Shown here piece after piece: positions 14,090 to 56,058 of a DNA stretch of 64,000 bases (its first letter is position 1; the number at the start of each line of letters is the position of its first letter). Below the pieces are notes generated by a model that had not been told where the DNA came from, did no database searches, and saw only the letters and a list, made by a program, of their open reading frames with translations. The DNA lies in sequence record KC295538. The stretch is one strand, 5' to 3'. The stretch comes from Escherichia phage PBECO4. The translations under genes and the position numbers were made by a program.

Positions 14090-14122
14090 ATTATAGCAAA
14101 AAGGGCTGACCGAAGTCAACCC
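14090..14122 (-). promoter_or_regulatory. terminator-promoter cassette: hairpin GGGTTGAC-UUCG-GUCAGCCC embedded in TTGACT-18-TATAAT promoter
   Basis: Hairpin 14103-14122; -35 at 14119-14114; -10 at 14095-14090. Confidence 0.7.
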
Positions 14123-14484: not shown

Positions 14485-15624
14485 TTACAAAATTACTTCA
14501 CCAAAAATACCATTGATATCACGTTCAATGATGTATTCACCTTCATGTTCAGCTAAGAACTTTTTAATGGCTTCGTTAACTTTAGGACGATGAATGTTGT
14601 TGAATGTTTCAGTGCAACCATCTCCCTTTTCATAATAACCTTTATTATATAGTTTACCACATAACGCAATTGTATGTATTATTATTTCCAATTCTCTAGC
14701 AAGTTTCCCACCCACATTCTTATGAAATAAAATGGAAATTTCATTACTCCAAAAATTATCTACTTTATATATTTTTTTATAAGATAAGTTTTGTGGACTT
14801 AATCTTGCTTTAATAGTTTTGTTTGTAATACCAGCTTTATCCGAATTTTTTGCATAATCATTGTGAATATAAAATCTTCCAGGCTTGGAAGTTTTAAATC
14901 CTTTTACTGCACACGTGGGACAACCAGAACCAGACAGATGTGAATTTGGTGTTTGTTGAAATTCACCATGTTCTTTGCATATTATAATAGAGGTTACTTG
15001 GTTGTTAATGTAGTCATATAAAGAATAATCATACTTATTTCCGTGTATAAGATGTGATTTTTTTATAAATTCACCTAAAGTTTGTTTTAAAGTTTGTTTC
15101 GTGCATTCTTGACAACCAATTTTACCAGTAGCTAAGTCAGTAATTGTGGGTTTTTTTATATCACCACAATCATTACATACTACTTCAATTTTAGTTCTAC
15201 TAGGAAGTGTAGAGTTAAACGAAGTTATTCCACTATAAGTAAATTTATCATAACCATATTTTTTGTTGATGACACTAATATGATTAATGGTGTAATATGG
15301 AATATTAATAATATTGTAAAAAATCTTCCCATTAAATCCCTGCCTAATAAAATTCGTGCAGGTGGCTCCAATAACTAACATACCATCGTTATTCACTACA
15401 AGTTTGGTTTTTGATTTAGATATATAATCTTGTGATCTATTGATATAGAATCCAAGAACTCTTGGATCATTTATTTCACCCATAATACTAATAGGATCTT
15501 GAGCAATGTTGGATTTTTTTACAAAATTTATATCTTCGGCTTTCATCCACTCAAAAAGCATTCCATGCTCTTCATAAAAATAAACTTTTTCACCATCTTC
15601 ATTAAAATAGTACTGTTCAAACAT
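14485..15624 (-). CDS. Cys/His-rich protein, possibly a zinc-binding nuclease (379 aa)
   Basis: CNDCG..GCQEC and ICKEHGEF...HLSGSGCPTC clusters; AAAGGAG SD. Confidence 0.5.
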   Translation of the reverse strand: MFEQYYFNEDGEKVYFYEEHGMLFEWMKAEDINFVKKSNIAQDPISIMGEINDPRVLGFYINRSQDYISKSKTKLVVNNDGMLVIGATCTNFIRQGFNGKIFYNIINIPYYTINHISVINKKYGYDKFTYSGITSFNSTLPSRTKIEVVCNDCGDIKKPTITDLATGKIGCQECTKQTLKQTLGEFIKKSHLIHGNKYDYSLYDYINNQVTSIIICKEHGEFQQTPNSHLSGSGCPTCAVKGFKTSKPGRFYIHNDYAKNSDKAGITNKTIKARLSPQNLSYKKIYKVDNFWSNEISILFHKNVGGKLARELEIIIHTIALCGKLYNKGYYEKGDGCTETFNNIHRPKVNEAIKKFLAEHEGEYIIERDINGIFGEVIL

Positions 15625-22132: not shown

Positions 22133-23644
22133 TTATTTTTTATCCTTTCCAACACCACTGTCGTACTCTTTGAATGAGTTATCAAGTGTAGTTAGTGCAT
22201 ACTCATATGCTTCTGGTGATTCAATGTCAACATCATCTGCACCATTTACTAAATCAGCCCACGCCTTTTGAAGTTTACGAGCATTGTTACCAACATTATC
22301 TTTAATCCAACTAATGTTTTTGTTGATACTTTTACGATCAGCACCTGCTTTTTTGCCAATCTCGGATATCCACATCATTAGCTTTTGAAGTTCATGAATT
22401 GATTTATCGGTCATTTCAAGATGTTCTTCTTCCATACCTTCGGAATCAGATGAACCAACGTCAATTCCATGTTTAGCTAATAGTTTACCAAGTTCAAAGA
22501 ATGCAGCTTCAGCAGGGAAGTCATAACCTTTCTCTTTGTAGTTATTCCATGCACTATCAAACTCGTCAACAAAACGGTTAGCATAATCTGGATTTTTAAC
22601 TAATGCTTTATATACTGCAATTGCATGTTCAAAACCTTCTTTATCTGACCCAAACTCTTCCATCTCAGGACGATGAATGTATCCATCCATATCAACGGTA
22701 TCAGGTAGTTCTTCTTGCTCAGGCTCAACATCTTTCTGTTCAACTGCACCCTCTTCATCTGCACGCTTTAGATAACCATCTGGTGTTACCTTCTCACCAT
22801 GTTCTGCTTCATACTTTTTCATAGTGTTGAATGCAGCATCCATAGCTGTTACGAAGCGACTTTTCTCACCTTGTACATAAGATTTAAGTGCACTGTTAAC
22901 TGCATCTGATACGAGCTTAACCTTATCGTCTTTACCTTCTAAACGGTTTTCAAGTTTAGCCAGTACATTCTTGACTTGCTGGGCATTAGCACGGTCCGCT
23001 TTACCAATATTATCAAAAGTTTTAAGAATACCATCAAGACTTGCTTCACCCTGTTCAGGTTCTTTGGAATCTTCTTTGTGTGTACCTTCAAGTGCACGCA
23101 TGATAGTACTGAATACTTCAGTTGGTTCAGTGCTCTTATTACCTTTCATTACATCAAGTACAGCTTGTGCTTTACCTTTGAGTTCTTCTTTAGGAACTGC
23201 CTGTAGTGCTTTGACAATACCCTGAATCAACTGTGGTTTGTTAGCAAAGATCTTACCTAAGTTATCTGATAACTCTTTAACAGGGTTAGCAGCTTTAGGT
23301 ACTTCTGCTTTTGGTTCTTCTTTAGGAACTGCTTGTTCTTTCTCAGCACGTTCCATATCAGCTAGGCGTTGTTTTTGTGTAGCATTAAGAAGTCCCAATG
23401 AATTAACATAACGTAGCTTTTCTAGCTCAGTCATGTTCTCAGTACTCTTAACTTCACCTGCTTCTGCGTTTGCTTTACCAGCTAGACCAGTTCCTTGGTT
23501 ACGTGACCCACGTGAACCTTGACCTGCTTGATAACTATTTGGACGGCGGTTGCGTTCACTCCATTTATCAGAGTGACCAGCCATGTTACCACCATTTTTA
23601 TCAGTAAAATTACTTGGCATTTGATTTCTCTCCATAGATTTCAT
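22133..23644 (-). CDS. large charged (K/E-rich) protein, 503 aa, unknown function
   Basis: Track ORF; low-complexity charged composition; shares a short motif with neighbouring 127-aa ORF. Confidence 0.7.
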   Translation of the reverse strand: MKSMERNQMPSNFTDKNGGNMAGHSDKWSERNRRPNSYQAGQGSRGSRNQGTGLAGKANAEAGEVKSTENMTELEKLRYVNSLGLLNATQKQRLADMERAEKEQAVPKEEPKAEVPKAANPVKELSDNLGKIFANKPQLIQGIVKALQAVPKEELKGKAQAVLDVMKGNKSTEPTEVFSTIMRALEGTHKEDSKEPEQGEASLDGILKTFDNIGKADRANAQQVKNVLAKLENRLEGKDDKVKLVSDAVNSALKSYVQGEKSRFVTAMDAAFNTMKKYEAEHGEKVTPDGYLKRADEEGAVEQKDVEPEQEELPDTVDMDGYIHRPEMEEFGSDKEGFEHAIAVYKALVKNPDYANRFVDEFDSAWNNYKEKGYDFPAEAAFFELGKLLAKHGIDVGSSDSEGMEEEHLEMTDKSIHELQKLMMWISEIGKKAGADRKSINKNISWIKDNVGNNARKLQKAWADLVNGADDVDIESPEAYEYALTTLDNSFKEYDSGVGKDKK

Positions 23645-23668
23645 TTTTTTCTCTATGTCTATATTTAT

Positions 23669-23699
23669 AGTATAAAGAAAAGGCTGACCGAAGTCAACC
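23669..23699 (-). promoter_or_regulatory. terminator-promoter cassette (copy 6; TTGACT-17-TATACT)
   Basis: Hairpin 23682-23699; -10 at 23674-23669. Confidence 0.65.
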
Positions 23700-23707
23700 T
23701 TATTTTG

Positions 23708-23821
23708 TTACTTAGATTGTTCTTGTGCAGGTGGATTTACTTTTTGATCCACTACATAGAATACACCACCAACCAGTACTGCGGCGATGAGTGCAGCAAC
23801 TACAAATTTTAAACCTTGCAT
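23708..23821 (-). CDS. possible small membrane protein (37 aa)
   Basis: ATG with GAGG SD; MQGLKFVVAALIAAVLVGGVFYVV...; below track size cut-off. Confidence 0.4.
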   Translation of the reverse strand: MQGLKFVVAALIAAVLVGGVFYVVDQKVNPPAQEQSK

Positions 23822-23850
23822 ATATGATACCTCAGTTATATTGAGAAGTT

Positions 23851-23883
23851 ATGATACAACAAAGGGCTGACCTTAGTCAACCC
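23851..23883 (-). promoter_or_regulatory. terminator-promoter cassette (copy 7; variant loop CTTA)
   Basis: gggctgaccttagtcaaccc 23864-23883. Confidence 0.55.
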
Positions 23884-23889
23884 TTTTTA

Positions 23890-24273
23890 TTACTTCTTGA
23901 ACTTATGTTTTTCACTTTCGATTGCATTCACGATTTCATCATGAATTTTACGAAGATTGTGAGTTTTCTTGAGAGAATCATGCAATGCACGGAATGCAGA
24001 GTGTACAGTTGCTTTAAAGTGCTCTTTAGGAGTTACTTTAAGTTTCTCGATAATATCACGTACATAGATTGGGTGATCCTCAAACACACGATTAAGCTCA
24101 TGACCTAGTGATTCTAGGCTAAATGCTTTTTCACGGGATGGACGATCATGTGCAAGACTTTGGTCTGGTTTTAGAAGACCTAGTGAATCTAGATACTTGT
24201 GCTTATGTGCATTGTCTAGACCAGAAATATCAACATCATGTGATGGATCTTTCTTATTCCATTTATCAACCAT
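23890..24273 (-). CDS. hypothetical basic protein (127 aa)
   Basis: Track ORF; contains YLDSLGLLKPDQ. Confidence 0.65.
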   Translation of the reverse strand: MVDKWNKKDPSHDVDISGLDNAHKHKYLDSLGLLKPDQSLAHDRPSREKAFSLESLGHELNRVFEDHPIYVRDIIEKLKVTPKEHFKATVHSAFRALHDSLKKTHNLRKIHDEIVNAIESEKHKFKK

Positions 24274-24388
24274 TTTTATAACTCCTATAAGAGATAAATT
24301 TTACTATAATATTTATAGTTCCGTTGTCATTTATATCGAATGACATAAAACATTATATCATAATAAGAATGGTTGTCCCAAAGTTAAA

Positions 24389-33713: not shown

Positions 33714-34502
33714 TTAAATGTTAGTAGTATAGTACTTGATTTCGTTTTGAATTGCAAGTTCTATTTGTTTATTGAAAAGAATTCCAAACTCTTTGATTGA
33801 TTCACAATCGAATTCAATAGAAAAAGTATACTCTGGTATACGTACATTGTCAATACCCAAATACTCTTTTATGTAAATTTTAATGAGTTCACATAGTGCA
33901 GTACTAAGACATTGAATTTCAAAATGTTTTGCACCTTTGTCAAAATACTTGAATGCATCAATATCACCTACAATAAAACTATTCTTTAATGTAGTGAATA
34001 GGTTCTCAGGAAACACGGTAATAGGTGACATTGATTTAAGAATGTATGTATCTTTGGCATTCTTAATGTACTCAATGAAGCAGTAGTTAACGTCAGGCTC
34101 GATTGAACGATCCGCGTTATGATACCAGTGTTTAAACTCACTGTATTCAGCAAACTTATGCTGGCGTAATGCGTTACAATCTTCACACAGTGCAGTCATG
34201 TTCTCTTTATCATTACCGCCCTGAAGACAGTCAAGTACATTATGGTCTAACGTCATGCGTACAAGGCGTTTCCCTTTAAGTACATAAGGTCTGAATTTAT
34301 AACGTTCTTTAGTACTGTGCTTATGTAAAGTGAATACCACATTGGATTCACCACAACAATCACATTTAAAGCCATCACGTGACATTACATGAATGAGTTT
34401 TCGAGTATTTGGACCAAACTCTGATTTGGTAATGTTACCTACAATTTCTGATGGTTTGTAGTATTTTGAATTCCGGCGAATCAATTCATCTATAGTGCTC
34501 AT
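33714..34502 (-). CDS. HNH endonuclease (free-standing, homing-endonuclease-like)
   Basis: CDCCGE ... TLDHNVLDCLQGGNDKENMTALCEDCNALRQH. Confidence 0.75.
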   Translation of the reverse strand: MSTIDELIRRNSKYYKPSEIVGNITKSEFGPNTRKLIHVMSRDGFKCDCCGESNVVFTLHKHSTKERYKFRPYVLKGKRLVRMTLDHNVLDCLQGGNDKENMTALCEDCNALRQHKFAEYSEFKHWYHNADRSIEPDVNYCFIEYIKNAKDTYILKSMSPITVFPENLFTTLKNSFIVGDIDAFKYFDKGAKHFEIQCLSTALCELIKIYIKEYLGIDNVRIPEYTFSIEFDCESIKEFGILFNKQIELAIQNEIKYYTTNI

Positions 34503-35034: not shown

Positions 35035-35560
35035 GACTTTTAATATTGACGGGATTTGAGGAAGGGATTTTTCTTCCCCCCCACAAGGAGGGAAATTTGA
35101 CGCTGATGGTATCAGAGCTATTGCATTGAAGATTACTCATAACGAGTGCGAAAGCGGGTCATCCTGTTTCTCTCTACTTCAGTTTCATATGACGGTCTAC
35201 ACTTTTAAACATAGTGTATCTTCATTAAGTATCTATGCAATCAAATACTTAATGTGAGTACTCAAATTCTGGACGCAACTTTCCTGTACAAAATTTGATA
35301 ACTCTCCCTTAGATAATTCGTAAGGTGTTATCCTTATATGTCTATCAAGGAACCACCAGCTATCCTAACGTGGTTCTTTATACAGCCGCATTGCCGTGAG
35401 GGGTTCAAACTATGCCCACATCTAACGGGTTTCTTTTGCTGTTCGCACTGTCGGACTGCTCAACTGCCCTCTACGTTTTCGAGTGGATCAGGTACATGAA
35501 TATCATGCCAACAGAATTGTACAAGATAATTATATCACAAACTTTTACTTCATCCCATAA

Positions 35561-35590
35561 AAAAAGGTTGGCTTATGCCAACCTTTTTTC
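35561..35590 (-). terminator. intrinsic terminator hairpin (AGGTTGGC-loop-GCCAACCT) with flanking A/T runs
   Basis: aaaaaaggttggcttatgccaacctttttt immediately 3' of the sigma-like gene. Confidence 0.7.
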
Positions 35591-35591
35591 T

Positions 35592-36557
35592 TTAGAAATC
35601 TTCGTATTCGTACCCTTTTGCAAGTACTAGCTTCTTAAGCTTTTGCATAGCTTCACTGTACTTTCGGTGTATTGATGAACGGGATTTAACATATTTTCCA
35701 TTATCATCAACAAAACCATTATCAGCAATCTCACGAAGCGTTTCAGGTTCATATTCACCTAGACCATGAACACGCTGGATAATCTCACGTTCTTTAGTAC
35801 TCAATTCGTTGGTCAGTTCATTGATAGCATAACGCAAAGGTGCACGGATACTATCAACATTGAGGTTAAAATCAGAAGCAGGTGAATGAATAATGTCACC
35901 TAATGTACCATCTGTAACACCGTCTAATGGTGCATCCAGCGAAGTGTATTCGCTTTGAAATAACAAACAATTATTAACATGCTGAATCTCAATCCCAGTA
36001 CCCTCTGAGATTATTTCAGGAGTTGGGCGAACACCATGTTTACGCATATATTCCTGACAGAATCTTTTTACTTTGATCTTATGAACACTCATATAACGTG
36101 GGAAGTGTACCATATAGTTAGCGTCAGAACTTTCGTTATAGACTGTCATGTAAATACTAGAAGAAGCATAGGTAATGAACTTAACATTCTTATTAAGATC
36201 AAAGGTTTTTAGTGCTCTCATGAACCCCTCAACACCATATGAAATCTTATCTTCAAATGGGATATAACAAGTACATTTACTTGCTACATCAATAATCAGT
36301 CCATAATTGTAACGAACTAACAGTTCAGTGTTTTTCTTTACATTGATACCAGCTTGAATATCACGAATTAGATCTTCATTGGAAACATTTGGTGGTCGCT
36401 TAAGTGTAATATTATATTTGAAACTGCTTTGTACTTTACCTTCATTTTCATCTTTATCTTCAACGAAATCTAAGGCTTCTAGTGTGTTGACTTCTTCATT
36501 AGCAAAACATTCATCCAGAACTTCTTCGGCAATTGTATTTAAATCAAGCTTTTTCAC
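35592..36557 (-). CDS. sigma-70-family RNA polymerase sigma factor-like protein (GTG start)
   Basis: C-terminal LSTKEREIIQRVHGLG..EPETLREIADNG..SRSSIHRKYSEAMQKLKK resembles region 4; AGGAG SD 6 nt before GTG. Confidence 0.65.
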   Translation of the reverse strand: MKKLDLNTIAEEVLDECFANEEVNTLEALDFVEDKDENEGKVQSSFKYNITLKRPPNVSNEDLIRDIQAGINVKKNTELLVRYNYGLIIDVASKCTCYIPFEDKISYGVEGFMRALKTFDLNKNVKFITYASSSIYMTVYNESSDANYMVHFPRYMSVHKIKVKRFCQEYMRKHGVRPTPEIISEGTGIEIQHVNNCLLFQSEYTSLDAPLDGVTDGTLGDIIHSPASDFNLNVDSIRAPLRYAINELTNELSTKEREIIQRVHGLGEYEPETLREIADNGFVDDNGKYVKSRSSIHRKYSEAMQKLKKLVLAKGYEYEDF

Positions 36558-36578
36558 TTACATCTCCTAATGACGAAA

Positions 36579-37076
36579 TCAAAATCGATATACATTAATA
36601 TTATCATCTGTGAAGCAATCATGGTTGTGCACATCCATGAAAGTACTAAACACTTTATCATATAAAGTTGTATGTTCTTCATGAATAGCAGCATCTAGCA
36701 TGTATTCTCCACCACTTCCCATAAAGAAAGTGTAGTCTTCATGTAGATATTCAAGTTTTTTAATAAACTTTCCTTTAGTTAAAATCATATGAATAACATA
36801 ATCTTTAGAAAGAAGCACACAATGGCAACTTAACTTTCTGTCAGGTATAACTGGTACTTTATTAATTAACCAATCCAGTACTTTATCAATTTCACTTACT
36901 ACCCCACTAGCACTGAATAAACGGTCATGTACATATAAAGTTTTTTGATTAACAACTCCATATTGATATTTTGGTCTTAGTGGGAAAAAACCAAATAAGT
37001 TTCGTGGTATAGTTGACGTAACTCTAGAATCGGTAATCAATAAATTTAATCGTTTATCAATATAAACAGTTGTCAT
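36579..37076 (-). CDS. hypothetical protein (165 aa)
   Basis: Track ORF. Confidence 0.65.
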   Translation of the reverse strand: MTTVYIDKRLNLLITDSRVTSTIPRNLFGFFPLRPKYQYGVVNQKTLYVHDRLFSASGVVSEIDKVLDWLINKVPVIPDRKLSCHCVLLSKDYVIHMILTKGKFIKKLEYLHEDYTFFMGSGGEYMLDAAIHEEHTTLYDKVFSTFMDVHNHDCFTDDNINVYRF

Positions 37077-37077
37077 A

Positions 37078-37497
37078 TTAAACCTTATCTAAGAATTTAT
37101 CGTATATATAAAATTCTTTATCGGTGAATACATTAATTCTAGTATCGAATCTTTGCATTGTGTTCATATACAATGAACTTTTTAAATAAAAATACAAAGC
37201 AACAAATTCTGATATATGCATATTCTTTTTATTGTTACATAAATTCTTAAGCATTTTGATGCTATCAAATTCTTTTTCATCAAATCTGTATTGGTAAAAA
37301 TTGTATCTATTGGAACGGCACTCATAGATACGAAGTGCCATTATATCAATACATGCTTTAGATTTACAGTACTTATTCAATACGTCATAATCACCCGTAC
37401 ATAATGCTACAAAGATTTTATGTGCGAGTGTAGCTTTGCCTTCAATCGTATAATAGCCAAAAAATTTAATGATTAAGTACTGAATGAATGTAATCAT
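37078..37497 (-). CDS. hypothetical protein (139 aa)
   Basis: Track ORF. Confidence 0.65.
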   Translation of the reverse strand: MITFIQYLIIKFFGYYTIEGKATLAHKIFVALCTGDYDVLNKYCKSKACIDIMALRIYECRSNRYNFYQYRFDEKEFDSIKMLKNLCNNKKNMHISEFVALYFYLKSSLYMNTMQRFDTRINVFTDKEFYIYDKFLDKV

Positions 37498-37502
37498 TTG
37501 AT

Positions 37503-37763
37503 TTAGAATTTCTCCGAAATTACTAGAGTGTCATCATAATCTTCTGCAATATCATGAAGAACTTTTAAGTTACTTTCACCAGAAACGCTTTTTACTTCGT
37601 TCAAAAGATAGTTTAGATCAACTTTAGTTACTTTTTCTGAATCAAACACACAGAAAGTTAATTCAGCGTTTGGACAGATCTTCTTCAGATTATCAGCAAC
37701 AACTTGTTTGAAGTTGAAAGATGGGGAAGCAACCAGGTTAACTGCAACGAGAATAGATTTCAT
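37503..37763 (-). CDS. hypothetical protein (86 aa)
   Basis: Track ORF. Confidence 0.6.
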   Translation of the reverse strand: MKSILVAVNLVASPSFNFKQVVADNLKKICPNAELTFCVFDSEKVTKVDLNYLLNEVKSVSGESNLKVLHDIAEDYDDTLVISEKF

Positions 37764-37837
37764 AATGTTTTCCTTTTTAGCTGATAATTAAATTAGGAGC
37801 ACATTGTACTCCATATTATTTGTTATGTCAAATACTT

Positions 37838-41353: not shown

Positions 41354-42508
41354 ATGTCAAGGTCAATTGCTGCGGCTGGACGCTATAAGTTTGGTGAATG
41401 TGGTTATGTTGTTGATGGTGCAATCCTCAATGATGGAACTAGACTAAAAAATATTAGAATCTATCGCCAAAGAAGCCATAGATTATATGATTTAGTTGAT
41501 CCAAGAACTAATATAATATATCGTAAAGTACAAATAACAACTAAAGATAATAAAGGTTATCTATTAAATTACAATAAAACTAATGACCAACTATTAAGTG
41601 AAATTAATAAAAATTGTTTCTTTGTTCGTGGATATTCTGAAGAGCCACAAGAAACTGATACTGGATTTGTATATAAATTCATGCTACATAAAACAATTTT
41701 AGGTAGTTCACAAACCTTGTATCATATGTATACACCTGAATGTGGTATTATAGATCGTGATATAGATAATATTCTCATTTCACCAGTATTTGTTGGTAAT
41801 GACTCAATTAGTGGTAAATTATTCAATACTGGTTCAGAAATTGATACTAACGGTATGGTAATAACAATCGTATTACCAGACGGAACAGAATACTTTACTA
41901 CCCAATTTGTTAATGATGCATTTACAATTCCAGTTGATGTTATCACACAATCAGGAAAAGGTACTGCTACACTCACTTCTCCATATTATAACACTAAAGT
42001 GGTGGAATTTGATGTTCTTGAAAGTGGTGAGGATATTGATTTTGTTACATCAGTTCTTCTATCCCAATTTGAACCTGTTTCGGAAGGTGTATTTTCTGCG
42101 GTTGTTCCATTTGATGTTCATGATCGTGGACAGTACTTAGCACTTCAAGCATACAGTGGTGACTTATATCAAGTTGGTGTAGATCTTTCTGTAGACGCAG
42201 AAGGTAATATTACTGTGTATCAAACTGATAATTTACCTGTTTCTTTGAGTATAATCGGAAAAACACTGCATACTACTCCTTTCCATAAAGAATATACTTT
42301 AAGTGAGTGGGTTCTCGGTGAAGACTCTATGTACTCTATCTCGGTTCCAGTAACTGAACATGGTAAAGCACTACCACAAGTTCAATTATATTCTTCAGAC
42401 AATCATGTAGTTCATAGTGAAATACAAGTGGATGAAGATGATAATGTAATTCTTAAAGTAGTAGAACCGCTTGACTGCTCAGTCGTAATAGTTGGTTACA
42501 ACGCATAA
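41354..42508 (+). CDS. hypothetical protein (384 aa), beta-rich, possibly structural
   Basis: Only plus-strand gene in this region; GGAGGG SD; bidirectional terminator downstream. Confidence 0.7.
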   Translation: MSRSIAAAGRYKFGECGYVVDGAILNDGTRLKNIRIYRQRSHRLYDLVDPRTNIIYRKVQITTKDNKGYLLNYNKTNDQLLSEINKNCFFVRGYSEEPQETDTGFVYKFMLHKTILGSSQTLYHMYTPECGIIDRDIDNILISPVFVGNDSISGKLFNTGSEIDTNGMVITIVLPDGTEYFTTQFVNDAFTIPVDVITQSGKGTATLTSPYYNTKVVEFDVLESGEDIDFVTSVLLSQFEPVSEGVFSAVVPFDVHDRGQYLALQAYSGDLYQVGVDLSVDAEGNITVYQTDNLPVSLSIIGKTLHTTPFHKEYTLSEWVLGEDSMYSISVPVTEHGKALPQVQLYSSDNHVVHSEIQVDEDDNVILKVVEPLDCSVVIVGYNA

Positions 42509-47826: not shown

Positions 47827-47916
<90 letters not shown>

Positions 47917-47928
47917 AGAAGTAAGATA

Positions 47929-48101
<173 letters not shown>

Positions 48102-48144
48102 ATTGACCTCGTTAGATTAAAACCCCCAGTTTTCTTCTTGAACC

Positions 48145-48204
<60 letters not shown>

Positions 48205-48261
48205 GTATTCTACAGCGACCATTTTAGCTAAAGGTGAACTGAGCATACTCGAAGTACCTCT

Positions 48262-48929
<668 letters not shown>

Positions 48930-48944
48930 TTATACCTCGCATTG

Positions 48945-49104
<160 letters not shown>

Positions 49105-49107
49105 GTA

Positions 49108-49207
<100 letters not shown>

Positions 49208-49242
49208 ATATCAGTACTGAAAACTATTGTCCAGTAGTATTT

Positions 49243-49602
49243 TCAGAAAAAAACCTTATTCAACACTTTAATTATCACAGAATTTAATTCATGTGGGAAC
49301 ACATTTTCATATACTGTGCGTTTCTGAAATTCATCTTCTTCATCAGCACTTAGCTGGAAGGTAATGTATTGAGCATTTATACTATTTATTATATCACGTA
49401 AAGTGTTATTTGTCCTTTTTATTTCTTCAAATGATTCAAAAACAATTACATCGTCATTTATAATAAATGATTCACCATATTCATTGAAAATGCGAATTCC
49501 AGGATTATCTTTACACCAGTTATTGGTATGGTCTGTTGTTAATTTTGAATTCAAAAATGATTTAAGAAACTCTTCATACTTTGAAATGTCTTTAACACTC
49601 AT
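49243..49602 (-). CDS. hypothetical protein with EDEFQKRT motif (family FQ-like)
   Basis: Track ORF. Confidence 0.6.
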   Translation of the reverse strand: MSVKDISKYEEFLKSFLNSKLTTDHTNNWCKDNPGIRIFNEYGESFIINDDVIVFESFEEIKRTNNTLRDIINSINAQYITFQLSADEEDEFQKRTVYENVFPHELNSVIIKVLNKVFF

Positions 49603-49679
49603 ATCACCAACTTTAATTAAAAAAATGGATGGTGACGCTTTTAAACGCCGCTGTTAATTCAGCTTTATAACCACCCGTT

Positions 49680-49889
49680 TTAACTTACCTTTCGGCTACC
49701 TTGACGTGGGGCGTACAGGCTACTAAAAGCAACTTCTGTAAACATATTTCCACGCCTTACCCTTTTAAATAAAAGTCCATCCGGTTTTCCAGTTTGGTGA
49801 AGGACTTTCACCTCTAGTTTCAACCTGCTAGTCAAGTAATAATTGCCTATCGTCCAATTATCAAACCCGTCTAGGTTAACATTCACCAC
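49680..49889 (-). CDS. questionable 69-aa ORF inside GC-richer structured region (alternatively part of an ncRNA)
   Basis: AGGAAG SD-like upstream, but codon usage atypical for this genome. Confidence 0.3.
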   Translation of the reverse strand: MVNVNLDGFDNWTIGNYYLTSRLKLEVKVLHQTGKPDGLLFKRVRRGNMFTEVAFSSLYAPRQGSRKVS

Positions 49890-49964
49890 TTCCTAGAGTA
49901 CCAGAGATCTTGTTCTGGTTAGCATCGACGTAACTTACACCATATACGTCTGATTGTGGAATTC

Positions 49965-50002
<38 letters not shown>

Positions 50003-50059
50003 ACAAATCTGGACGTTCATCTTTAAACATATTAATATCCTCAGTACTGAATTATTTAG

Positions 50060-50473
<414 letters not shown>

Positions 50474-50483
50474 CTTTTTTTTT

Positions 50484-50645
<162 letters not shown>

Positions 50646-50649
<4 letters not shown>

Positions 50650-50810
50650 GTTCGTACCATTATTTCAATAAAGAACCACGGATACGCTTCATGGTTTATA
50701 AGTTTATCGTATTCTGCTGGGTCTGACATGATTTCCCAATGATACTTTCTCCAGTTACCGAAACCTGCATATCTAAAATTAATGTCATTCATCCATTCTT
50801 CATGCGTCAT
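50646..50810 (-). CDS. small protein, MTHEEW family (54 aa)
   Basis: MTHEEWMNDINFRYAGFGNW... Confidence 0.55.
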
Positions 50811-50814
50811 GGTT

Positions 50815-50916
<102 letters not shown>

Positions 50917-50920
50917 ATTT

Positions 50921-51036
<116 letters not shown>

Positions 51037-51053
51037 ATGTGATGTCCCATTAT

Positions 51054-51326
51054 TTATGATTCAGTTTGAGGATTAAATTTGATAAATTCATCTTTATGTT
51101 CATCTTCAAACGCAATATCTTCTACGTATTCAGGCCAAATCGTAGTGTCTCCTTGATAAAAGCGATAATTATCAAATACTGCACTACGCGTTCTTCCCTG
51201 TTCCCAGCCAATCGTACAGTCATGATATACATCCCCACTACTTGTACGAATACTAATGGTGTCTTGAGTTTCATAAAGAACTTCAATGCGTGTGTTACGA
51301 TTTACGTTGAATTTTTCAAAATGCAT
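51054..51326 (-). CDS. hypothetical protein (90 aa)
   Basis: Track ORF. Confidence 0.6.
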   Translation of the reverse strand: MHFEKFNVNRNTRIEVLYETQDTISIRTSSGDVYHDCTIGWEQGRTRSAVFDNYRFYQGDTTIWPEYVEDIAFEDEHKDEFIKFNPQTES

Positions 51327-51379
51327 AATATTATCCTCATCTAGAACCAGTGATAATCATTATATAATGAATTAATGAT

Positions 51380-51706
51380 TTATGCAAGTGTTTTAGATAC
51401 ACCGACACCAATAATTCCAGTGATATCGATATGGATATTGGCAAGTTGATTACTATCATATGGGTTTGTTTCTGTAATAACCAATGTTGTATCATTGACT
51501 AAAACCACAGTACCTTTTACACGATAACCATGTAGTAGTACTTGAACCTCATCTTCAGGTTTTAATGATTGAATAACTTCAAATAAAGTTGTTTCCATTT
51601 TTTGTATTCCTTGTTTAGTTTTGATTATTTGACTTTCTAAATGCCAGTTCGCATATAAACCAGGGTTTTCTGGTATCCAAAACATATGACCTGAAAAGAT
51701 TTTCAT
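51380..51706 (-). CDS. hypothetical protein (start uncertain, possibly internal ATG ~51598)
   Basis: Track ORF overlaps next gene by 92 nt. Confidence 0.5.
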   Translation of the reverse strand: MKIFSGHMFWIPENPGLYANWHLESQIIKTKQGIQKMETTLFEVIQSLKPEDEVQVLLHGYRVKGTVVLVNDTTLVITETNPYDSNQLANIHIDITGIIGVGVSKTLA

Positions 51707-51815
51707 CTCTTAATATATCATAATGTACCTGACGAATGCCATTCCCAAAGCAGTCATGTTCTTTATGCTGTTTGGACATCCATTCTTCGTGTGTCATTTT
51801 ATGTATCCAGTACAA
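51615..51815 (-). CDS. small protein, MTHEEW family
   Basis: MYWIHKMTHEEWMSKQ...FGNGIRQVHYDILRD. Confidence 0.6.
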   Translation of the reverse strand: MYWIHKMTHEEWMSKQHKEHDCFGNGIRQVHYDILRDENLFRSYVLDTRKPWFICELAFRKSNNQN

Positions 51816-52014
51816 TTAAGTGCTGCATCTCTTCTTTTGTAAAGAAAGCACTGTCATGAACAATAGAACCAGTCTTATCAACTACATAGTACAGGTTTCC
51901 ATATTGTTGAACATCAATTCCGTCAATTTCAATTCGTGGAAAATTTTGGACAATACAGTCTGCACCGAAAACCTCACCAAAAAAGTTTCCTGCTGGATTG
52001 ATAATGACTTTCAT
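51799..52014 (-). CDS. hypothetical protein (71 aa)
   Basis: Track ORF. Confidence 0.55.
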   Translation of the reverse strand: MKVIINPAGNFFGEVFGADCIVQNFPRIEIDGIDVQQYGNLYYVVDKTGSIVHDSAFFTKEEMQHLIVLDT

Positions 52015-52032
52015 ATTAAATCACCTTTATTG

Positions 52033-52114
<82 letters not shown>

Positions 52115-55943: not shown

Positions 55944-56058
55944 TTTAATACCCTTTTATTTCTTTTTTATGAAAAACCCTCATCATTGAGGAATGGTTTG
56001 CATTTTAATATCTGCCGATAACAAACATTATATCACAATATCTGTTCTTGTCCAATTT

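Follow-up and report, generated by a model that had tools for sequence, protein, structure and literature searches.

A sigma-70-family sigma factor of Escherichia phage PBECO4 and a candidate target promoter class with a clade-specific -35 element

Escherichia phage PBECO4 (sequence record KC295538) encodes, on the minus strand at 35592..36557 of the 64,000-nucleotide stretch analysed here (the window), a 321-residue protein that profile searches and the predicted fold identify as a sigma-70-family sigma factor with the domains sigma2, sigma3, and sigma4. The gene is already known as an annotated hallmark of its phage group, with a function that is only presumed. Here, we propose an assignment that is specific and testable, as it joins a promoter class, a clade-specific -35 hexamer, and a variable recognition helix: with a probability of roughly 0.55, transcription would pass from the host sigma-70 to this phage sigma factor, and from there to a gp55-like late sigma factor.

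A divergent member of the sigma-70 family

The strongest Pfam match of the protein is to Sigma70_r3 (E = 2e-9; 37.8 bits, cutoff 25.3). Sigma70_r2 is borderline (E = 7.1e-5; 23.0 bits against a gathering cutoff of 24.0), and Sigma70_r4 is also close to its cutoff (E = 3.1e-5; 23.8 bits against 24.1), with only columns 4-28 of the 50 in the profile aligned. The superfamily model TIGR02937 scores 44.7, over its cutoff of 42.9, and there are matches to NCBIfam RpoD_Cterm (E = 6e-25) and to PHROG 351, "RNA polymerase sigma factor" (E = 2.6e-60), an orthogroup with which the gene shares full-length similarity and a position in the early block. All of the profile matches shown from Pfam, PHROG, and NCBIfam are of the sigma-70 type, with no gp55-type family among them. 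Searching the PDB by sequence gave RpoD, SigB, and SigA chains as the best matches (5e-17 to 1e-13) over residues ~74-283, with RpoS chains also present over the same residues. The AlphaFold model has a predicted local distance difference test (pLDDT) score of 72 overall and 80-90 in the domain cores; its best Foldseek matches in the PDB are all sigma-S, sigma-A, or sigma-70 chains (E about 3e-10, ~260 columns), the top structures being sigma factors in holoenzymes.

A first-pass annotation, made by a model from the letters and a list of open reading frames (ORFs), had described a 321-residue sigma-70-family sigma factor with region 4 over its last ~60 residues, preceded by a region-2-like segment, and had proposed a hidden Markov model search as the check. 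The Pfam, NCBIfam, PHROG, and PDB matches and the fold bear out this identification. Both segments were placed correctly and region 3 is present as well; the search, with r3 over its cutoff, r2 and r4 just under, and the superfamily model over, brought no refutation.

Members of the superfamily have sigma2, sigma3, and sigma4 with a helix-turn-helix (HTH) in region 4.2, and all three are found here. The protein does not belong to group 1, the RpoD orthologues: all RpoD/RpoS equivalog cutoffs are missed widely (88 bits against 354 for RpoD_Cterm, 64 against 555 for PRK05658), and Pfam r1_1 and r1_2 have no match in it. By these scores, it is a divergent sigma-70-family member and not RpoD, and because the equivalog cutoffs are missed by so wide a margin, the label "RpoD" found in some records is a misnomer.

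For the anatomy, 14 phage homologues were aligned with Escherichia coli RpoD, whose sequence was anchored on residues 373-578 from the PDB alignment. Alignment and model together divide the protein into an N-terminus (residues 1-58), sigma2 (~60-147), sigma3 (~154-199), a flexible region 3.2 linker (~200-238), and sigma4 (~239-313), the last with a beta-hairpin insertion at ~282-290. The likeness to RpoD, RpoS, and SigA extends from the order sigma2-sigma3-sigma4 to the 3.2 linker, regions 4.1 and 4.2, and individual residues of region 2.2 and the -10 pocket. In the 14 phage homologues, the equivalents of D403, G408, G411, A415, and F419 in the core-binding helix of region 2.2 are conserved, as are those of F419, F427, T429, and Y430 in the -10 pocket, together with A431 and P453; the 3.2 finger segment and region 4.1 are also conserved relative to RpoD. 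Conservation of the region 2.2 residues suggests that the phage sigma may bind core RNA polymerase and confer promoter-specific initiation.

The same comparison reveals several differences. Region 1.1, the first half of region 1.2, and the non-conserved region are all missing from the phage sigma. Its N-terminus is acidic (14 D/E against 7 K/R in the first 58 residues) and modelled with low confidence, and contains a conserved helix, EVLDECF. The W433/W434 dyad has become SS, and tryptophan never occupies the dyad positions across the clade; the region 2.4 readers Q437 and T440 are replaced, and the extended -10 readers are altered (H455 to Y, E458 to V). In the recognition helix of region 4.2, SRSSIHRKY stands against TRERIRQIE of RpoD. 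Here, the equivalent of R584 is kept as R or K, but E585, R588, and Q589, residues with which RpoD reads the -35 element, are replaced. Between the two HTH helices of region 4.2, the whole clade carries an insertion of ~10 residues (GFVDDNGKYVKS), which AlphaFold models as a beta-hairpin with both helices present. This insertion and the altered recognition helix account for the partial match to the Pfam r4 profile.

The window comes from an Asteriusvirus, a 121Q-like and RaK2-like jumbo phage (~350 kb) that is distantly related to T4. The first-pass annotation had called the genome T4-like; this holds as a distant relationship, but the genome is that of a 121Q/PBECO4-like Asteriusvirus and not of T4. 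The sigma region is 100% identical to that of Salmonella phage SD-2_S15 and 98.6-99.8% identical to at least 17 further coliphage or Salmonella-phage records, including 121Q, phAPEC6, Sharanji, and vB_Eco_slurp01. The matching records measure ~310-375 kb, and Sharanji and 121Q are classified in the genus Asteriusvirus. Most of the near-identical records annotate the ORF as "RNA polymerase sigma factor", and at the protein level the identity to such entries is 99-100% (121Q gp167; Sharanji gp182, "rpoD"). Full-length orthologues with 31-44% identity are present in RaK2/K64-1, Munch/SE_PL, GAP32/CBB/BF/fHe-Yen9-04, and Xanthomonas phage XaC1, and full-length tblastn matches in 71 phage records. 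The annotated sigma factors of the RaK2-like phages (121Q gp167, Sharanji gp182 "RpoD", phAPEC6, RaK2 ORF244, GAP32, and CBB_513) belong to the same orthologous family and share the early-block position; from these, the protein itself shows no difference.

In the literature, the family is described as an annotation (PMC5259590, PMC7824862, PMC11895373). The CBB paper counts CBB_513 among the presumed early genes and reads the equivalent block as early (PMC5259590). Iyer et al. define "group 2" jumbo phages by their phage-encoded sigma factors, of which there are two kinds, minimal and RpoD-like (PMC7824862), and the Sharanji paper and a 2026 review state that the sigma factor "likely" works with the host RNA polymerase.

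RaK2-like jumbo phages possess two sigma-like factors and no RNA polymerase of their own. The second factor, 121Q gp591 (279 residues), is annotated "sigma factor for late transcription", adjoins the SbcCD (gp46/47-like) genes, and is kept in all RaK2-like phages. It has no match in Pfam; its relationship to gp55 comes from tblastn matches to cyanophage gp55 (roughly 1e-8 to 1e-5). T4-like (T)ATAAATA motifs are found at late structural genes of 121Q and XaC1. Because 121Q-like genomes also encode this gp55-like late sigma, the sigma factor of the window is an additional one and not a gp55 replacement. T4 gp55 and the window sigma are both phage-encoded specificity factors for the host RNA polymerase, but gp55 is small and resembles sigma2 only, and the two are unrelated. 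The first-pass annotation had thought the gene notable on the ground that T4 uses gp55. It was right about a large sigma-70-family protein, but the protein is a known, annotated hallmark, and a gp55-like sigma is encoded as well.

The M promoter class and its possible reader

Past ~10.1 kb, nearly all genes of the window are small and on the minus strand. Near-consensus TTGAC(A)-N16-18-TATAAT sites number 61 in the window, of which 55 lie on the minus strand, in the small-gene block; 9 are perfect. It is this near-perfect, strand-biased subset alone that is informative, as the total returned by a simple promoter scanner (44 against 48.5 in shuffles) is not. In 121Q, where expected counts were taken from a second-order Markov model, TTGAC[AT]-N16-18-TANAAT occurs at 57 sites (55 on the coding strand) against 4.5 +/- 2.2 expected, and these crowd in the small-gene block at 50-150 kb. 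The early-type site nearest upstream of the sigma gene is TTGACA-N17-TACAAT at 37803..37831 (minus strand). RaK2, CBB, Munch, and fEgEco12 likewise have near-consensus sigma-70 promoters in front of the sigma gene; none of the near-consensus early type was found at the XaC1 sigma locus. Because it has an early-type promoter upstream and is located in the same-strand block of small genes, the sigma gene is probably expressed early, by the host sigma-70 holoenzyme.

Upstream of the replication genes of 121Q, G(G/A)GACA(AA)-N13-14-TGnTATAAT is found in place of TTGACA. In its strict form, G[GA]GACA-N13-14-TGNTANAAT, this class, which we call M, has 16 sites in 121Q, all on the coding strand, against 0 expected. 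They are located upstream of the gp55-like late sigma gene, of ssb, primase, exonuclease, and topoisomerase II, and of the DNA-polymerase region, as well as of three large non-coding elements, 121Q paralogues of an RNA described below. Among all xxGAC[AT]-N16-18-TANAAT sites of 121Q, the TG extension is present at 16 of the 21 that begin with GG or GA, against 13 of the 57 that begin with TT (Fisher p = 3e-5). Motifs upstream of likely middle or late genes, which the first-pass annotation had suggested looking for, do exist: the M class at the 121Q replication genes and ATAAATA at late genes.

With TATAAT as the anchor and a spacer of 16 nt, the -35 hexamer can be compared across clades, and it changes together with the recognition helix. 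Asteriusvirus, the fEgEco12 clade, and Munch have the M-class hexamer GGGACA/GAGACA and the helix SR(S/T)S(I/L)HR (121Q, Munch). BF, CBB, GAP32, fHe-Yen9-04, and uncultured relatives have (T)G(A/G)AAC(G/A/C) at 14/14 RNA-linked sites, with the helix SKATLSRR (CBB only aligned). K64-1/RaK2 have TGAACA(AAAA), at 11 sites in 100 kb and at one more after the RaK2 sigma gene, with the helix VRGTLHYK. In XaC1, the helix SKPTLSRR is of the CBB type, from which a CBB-type -35 was predicted before looking; the genome then gave three TGAAACG and one TGAAACA, upstream of the gp55-like gene, two other genes, and an RNA copy. All clades have an invariant A-C at -32/-31, and the R or K at the R584 position is likewise invariant; the retained R584 equivalent thus matches the retained part of the hexamer.

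The consensus published for CBB is TGAAACG, and the CBB/GAP32 authors report TGAAACG...TATA upstream of DNA-synthesis genes, with no factor assigned to it in the excerpts available from the CBB paper (PMC5259590). A search for TGAAACG in the window gave 8 scattered matches, mostly within ORFs and with no -10 partner; Asteriusvirus uses GGGACA/GAGACA instead.

In RaK2, CBB, Munch, and fEgEco12, the four enterobacterial phages checked, all with hosts in the Enterobacterales, TTGACA is retained in the early promoters near the sigma gene. The -35 element of the second class follows the phage clade rather than the host, which points to a phage-encoded factor as its reader. The sigma factor is the only region-4-containing protein identified, and we infer that it, and not another factor, reads the M class, and does so on the host core polymerase.

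In the cascade that we favor, the host sigma-70 would transcribe the early block, including the sigma gene. The phage sigma would use the conserved surfaces of its region 2.2 and sigma4 to bind the host core RNA polymerase, and would redirect the enzyme to the M class, that is, to G(G/A)GACA, a spacer of 16-17 bp, and TATAAT, usually with TGn before the -10. The altered region 4.2 would read the non-host -35 hexamer, and the conserved equivalents of the -10 pocket (F419, F427, T429, Y430) would handle the TATAAT-like -10. Replication and nucleotide-metabolism genes, tRNAs, the multi-copy structured RNA, and the gp55-like late sigma would be driven from the M class, and the gp55-like sigma would then read the T4-like ATAAATA late promoters.

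The nearest parallel to this logic may be SPO1, where gp28, a sigma factor from an early phage gene, brings the host core polymerase to the middle promoters, and the late genes are served by another phage-encoded sigma (PMC13401047). The late step here is T4 gp55-like, and the function proposed here is deduced from sequence; by analogy, the model would combine SPO1-like logic with a T4-like late system. The regulatory slot is the one held in T4 by MotA and AsiA, with promoters of replication genes that have a normal -10 and a non-host upstream element. Middle transcription in T4, however, proceeds by sigma appropriation: region 4 of the host sigma-70 is remodelled and MotA is added at a -30 box, whereas in the RaK2-like phages the upstream element lies at -35 and there is a complete alternative sigma with a region 4 of its own.

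A wider reading, for which the odds seem to us somewhat short of even, is that region 4.2 was re-tooled and co-evolved with the -35 element of each clade, that the sigma factor is the master switch of a middle regulon, and that chromosomal elements may plug into its promoter code. Such a regulon would comprise the replication genes, the gp55-like late sigma, the tRNAs, and an undescribed family of structured RNAs. If the pairing of promoter class, -35 hexamer, and recognition helix holds, it would offer orthogonal sigma/promoter pairs that work with the E. coli core polymerase, with specificity swaps feasible, and an evolutionary alternative to MotA/AsiA for middle transcription.

Several points weigh against the cascade. 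The co-variation is correlative and involves three helix types in related genomes, few in number and phylogenetically non-independent. The temporal classes derive from gene function and position and not from RNA. Our literature search found no experimental study of a RaK2-like sigma factor and no study that assigns promoters to either sigma-like factor of these phages. With a consensus -10, an extended -10 TG, and a -35 that agrees with TTGACA at 4/6 positions, the M class may plausibly be used by the host sigma-70 unaided. Missing from the phage sigma are the TG-reading residues of RpoD (H455 to Y, E458 to V) as well as the W433/W434 dyad (now SS). Another co-evolving phage DNA-binding protein could also read the -35 element, and an HTH gene does lie beside the sigma gene in CBB.

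The strongest alternative is that the host sigma-70 reads the M class as an extended -10 with a partial -35, either alone or with an activator of the MotA/AsiA kind, and that the phage sigma has its targets elsewhere. The presence of TGn-TATAAT in promoters ascribed to a sigma factor without the TG readers fits this explanation, as do the HTH proteins encoded near the sigma gene in CBB and the distant kinship of the RaK2-like phages to T4, whose middle class depends on the appropriated host sigma. We nevertheless regard it as unlikely. The -35 element is clade-specific even though Enterobacterales are the hosts of four of the five phage groups under comparison (we assume the sigma-70 region 4.2 of these hosts to be essentially identical), and it is located at -35 with a sigma-70-like spacing of 16-17 bp, unlike the MotA box at -30. 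MotA and AsiA are not among the annotations of 121Q, although no search for MotA was made; a tblastn search with T4 AsiA gave an unconvincing best E of 0.055 in what was a weak test.

It is less probable still that the phage sigma is a general substitute for sigma-70, which keeps the TTGACA/TATAAT early promoters going after the host factor has been inactivated. The best profile matches are indeed of the RpoD/RpoS type, and 121Q annotates candidate modifiers of host transcription (protein kinase, GNAT, Sir2, and macro domain proteins). With three of the four RpoD -35-reading residues considered (E585, R588, and Q589) replaced and a hairpin inserted in the HTH, however, reading of the same TTGACA is hard to reconcile with the protein. 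That the phage sigma mainly sequesters the host core polymerase for host shut-off, with no promoter-specific initiation, would agree with a conserved core-binding region 2.2 and the missing melting residues W433/W434, but is very improbable, as the -10 pocket, sigma3, the 3.2 finger, and the sigma4 HTH are all kept across clades down to 31% identity, and many group 3 sigma factors also lack the W dyad.

The sigma operon and the adjoining structured RNA

The sigma coding sequence opens with GTG at 36557..36555 and closes with TAA at 35594..35592. A Shine-Dalgarno sequence, AGGAG, is located at 36568..36564 (minus strand), 6 nt 5' of the start. The sole nearby upstream ATG runs straight into a TAA and the N-terminus of all homologues is MKKLDLN-like; thus, the GTG start with a strong Shine-Dalgarno sequence, as first annotated, is correct. 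Among eight phages checked, GTG is used in the window, 121Q, fEgEco12, CBB, and Munch, and TTG in UE-S1, with ATG confined to RaK2 and XaC1. Weak start codons, used by six of the eight, could mean that translation of the sigma factor is purposely limited.

Directly 3' of the stop codon, at 35558..35589 (minus strand), there is a hairpin that resembles an intrinsic terminator (AAAAAGGTTGGC-ATAA-GCCAACC followed by a T-run). Rfam gives just weak terminator-like matches to it, and the UE-S1 record annotates a terminator at the equivalent position. This hairpin appears to mark the end of the sigma operon. The early-type promoter at 37803..37831 would drive a four-gene operon that extends from 37763 to 35592. 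Its first two genes, at 37503..37763 (86 residues, PHROG 26969) and 37078..37497 (139 residues, PHROG 37211; both minus strand), are of unknown function. The third, at 36579..37076 (minus strand, 165 residues), has an HslV-like Ntn-hydrolase fold, a relationship based on PHROG and the predicted fold, and is called hypothetical in most records. None of the three has a match in Pfam. The AlphaFold2 model of the third gene product has a pLDDT of 87, and its top Foldseek matches are HslV (E = 7.5e-6) and 20S proteasome subunits, including proteasome beta; the protein has an invariant M-T-T N-terminus and a GSG motif (G120-S121-G122). Conserved counterparts of the gene in RaK2 (46% identity) and Munch (29%) also directly precede the sigma gene.

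Just past the sigma terminator, at 35529..35556 (minus strand), lies the M-class-like promoter GGGATG-N13-TGATATAAT, which we consider a candidate target of the phage sigma. It points into a structured non-coding RNA element of roughly 490 nt at 35037..35528 (minus strand), right after the sigma gene. This RNA corresponds to one of four paralogues in 121Q (69-85% identity); there are four paralogues per Asteriusvirus genome, and the family ranges from roughly 450 to 570 nt. Further copies are present in CBB (3), GAP32 (2), fHe-Yen9-04, XaC1, RaK2, and uncultured phage contigs of ~350-370 kb. The order of sigma gene, M promoter, and RNA is common to Asteriusvirus and RaK2, and each full copy is located behind an M promoter of the type of its clade. 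The RNA probably belongs to the M-class regulon.

When 23 distinct copies are aligned, 15 helices with 74 base pairs in all are supported. Paired cells make up 97.3%, a share that falls to 82.5% in shuffles and to 35-46% in slid controls; compensatory double changes are seen in 236 cells (71 expected), and 38 pairs have compensatory changes (8-14 in slid controls). Many copies contain an internal hairpin with a T-run before a conserved 3' module. Downstream of the sigma gene, Rfam (at the gathering threshold, E<=1, and E<=10) returned only terminator-like or chance matches, and an apparent likeness to core motifs of RNase P RNA and group I introns found no support in these scans. Comparison by nhmmer with ncRNA001 and ncRNA002 of PA5oct, which were defined by RNA sequencing, gave no match, and we found no paper that describes the family. 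An HNH-type homing-endonuclease gene at 33714-34502 (minus strand) lies ~0.5 kb downstream of the RNA; a second in the early block is at 14485-15624 (minus strand).

Two copies of the RNA were found in Serratia, where 8 kb stretches were covered. The full-length copy in Serratia sp. 2723 (L047:5290-5900) has the promoter TGAAACG-N13-TGCTATACT and lies directly beside a gene for a large serine recombinase of 568 residues, followed by AT-rich non-coding DNA. The copy in the chromosome of Serratia sp. L9 (L046:3513-3872) is truncated and abuts a truncated recombinase gene. These copies may belong to an integrated element or satellite that uses the promoter code of the jumbo phages. A match of the 24-nt pattern in a Bryobacteraceae metagenome-assembled genome (L045) is a chance match, as nhmmer finds nothing there.

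M-type sites and other features of the window

Elsewhere in the window, GGGACA-N13-TGATATAAT occurs twice on the minus strand. The site at 24352..24379 is upstream of virion-protein genes at 24273..23890 and 23644..22133, and that at 51021..51048 is directly upstream of tRNA-Ser (51010..50921). Another M-type site, at 49233, is upstream of a tRNA-Ser gene, and one more is found at 56054. A weaker, M-like site, GGAAGA-N13-TGCTATAAT at 62238..62265 (minus strand), is located upstream of the ORF 62200..61340, which maps by position to 121Q gp91, annotated as a DNA cytosine methyltransferase.

The tRNA cluster extends over 47837-52112 (minus strand) and comprises Thr, Asn, Met, two Ser, and Gly tRNAs as called by ARAGORN, both tRNA-Ser genes being directly behind M-type promoters. 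A borderline Rfam tRNA at 50838-50916 (29.3 bits) is not called by ARAGORN; 121Q and Sharanji annotate a tRNA beside the equivalent tRNA-Ser(tga), as Leu(taa) or Arg(tct).

Virion structural genes are also found inside the early block, at 41354-42508 (plus strand) and 22133-24273 (minus strand). The former has an ATAAATA late-type motif upstream, and the latter lie behind the M-class promoter at 24352..24379. A repeated cassette, AAAGGGTTGACTTCGGTCAGCCCTTTTTGCTATAAT, is present on the minus strand at 14119, 15909, 16833, 21031, 23697, 23880, and 27122. Its terminator-like hairpin holds the -35 hexamer TTGACT of the next promoter, such that the signals for termination and re-initiation overlap.

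The palindrome AGTACT is over-represented about 2.5-fold (903 against 351 +/- 21 expected in 121Q, 176 against 66 in the window). The sequence CAGTACTG occurs 194 times against 24 expected. It is spread through coding sequence and also makes up the spacer that directly precedes the -10 in one subclass of early promoters. CCATGG and CAGCTG do not occur at all, with ~42 and ~51 expected.

Finally, paralogous genes of ~300-430 codons that resemble RCC1 ("regulator of chromosome condensation") form an array at 88-10100 (plus strand). Among the 71-75-nt spacers examined, the four upstream of the starts at 1461, 2681, 6420, and 7671 are nearly identical, each with a hairpin (GCCAGTACACTGTACTGGC) and a T-run, followed by TATTAAATATAGTATAATG and AGGAGG.

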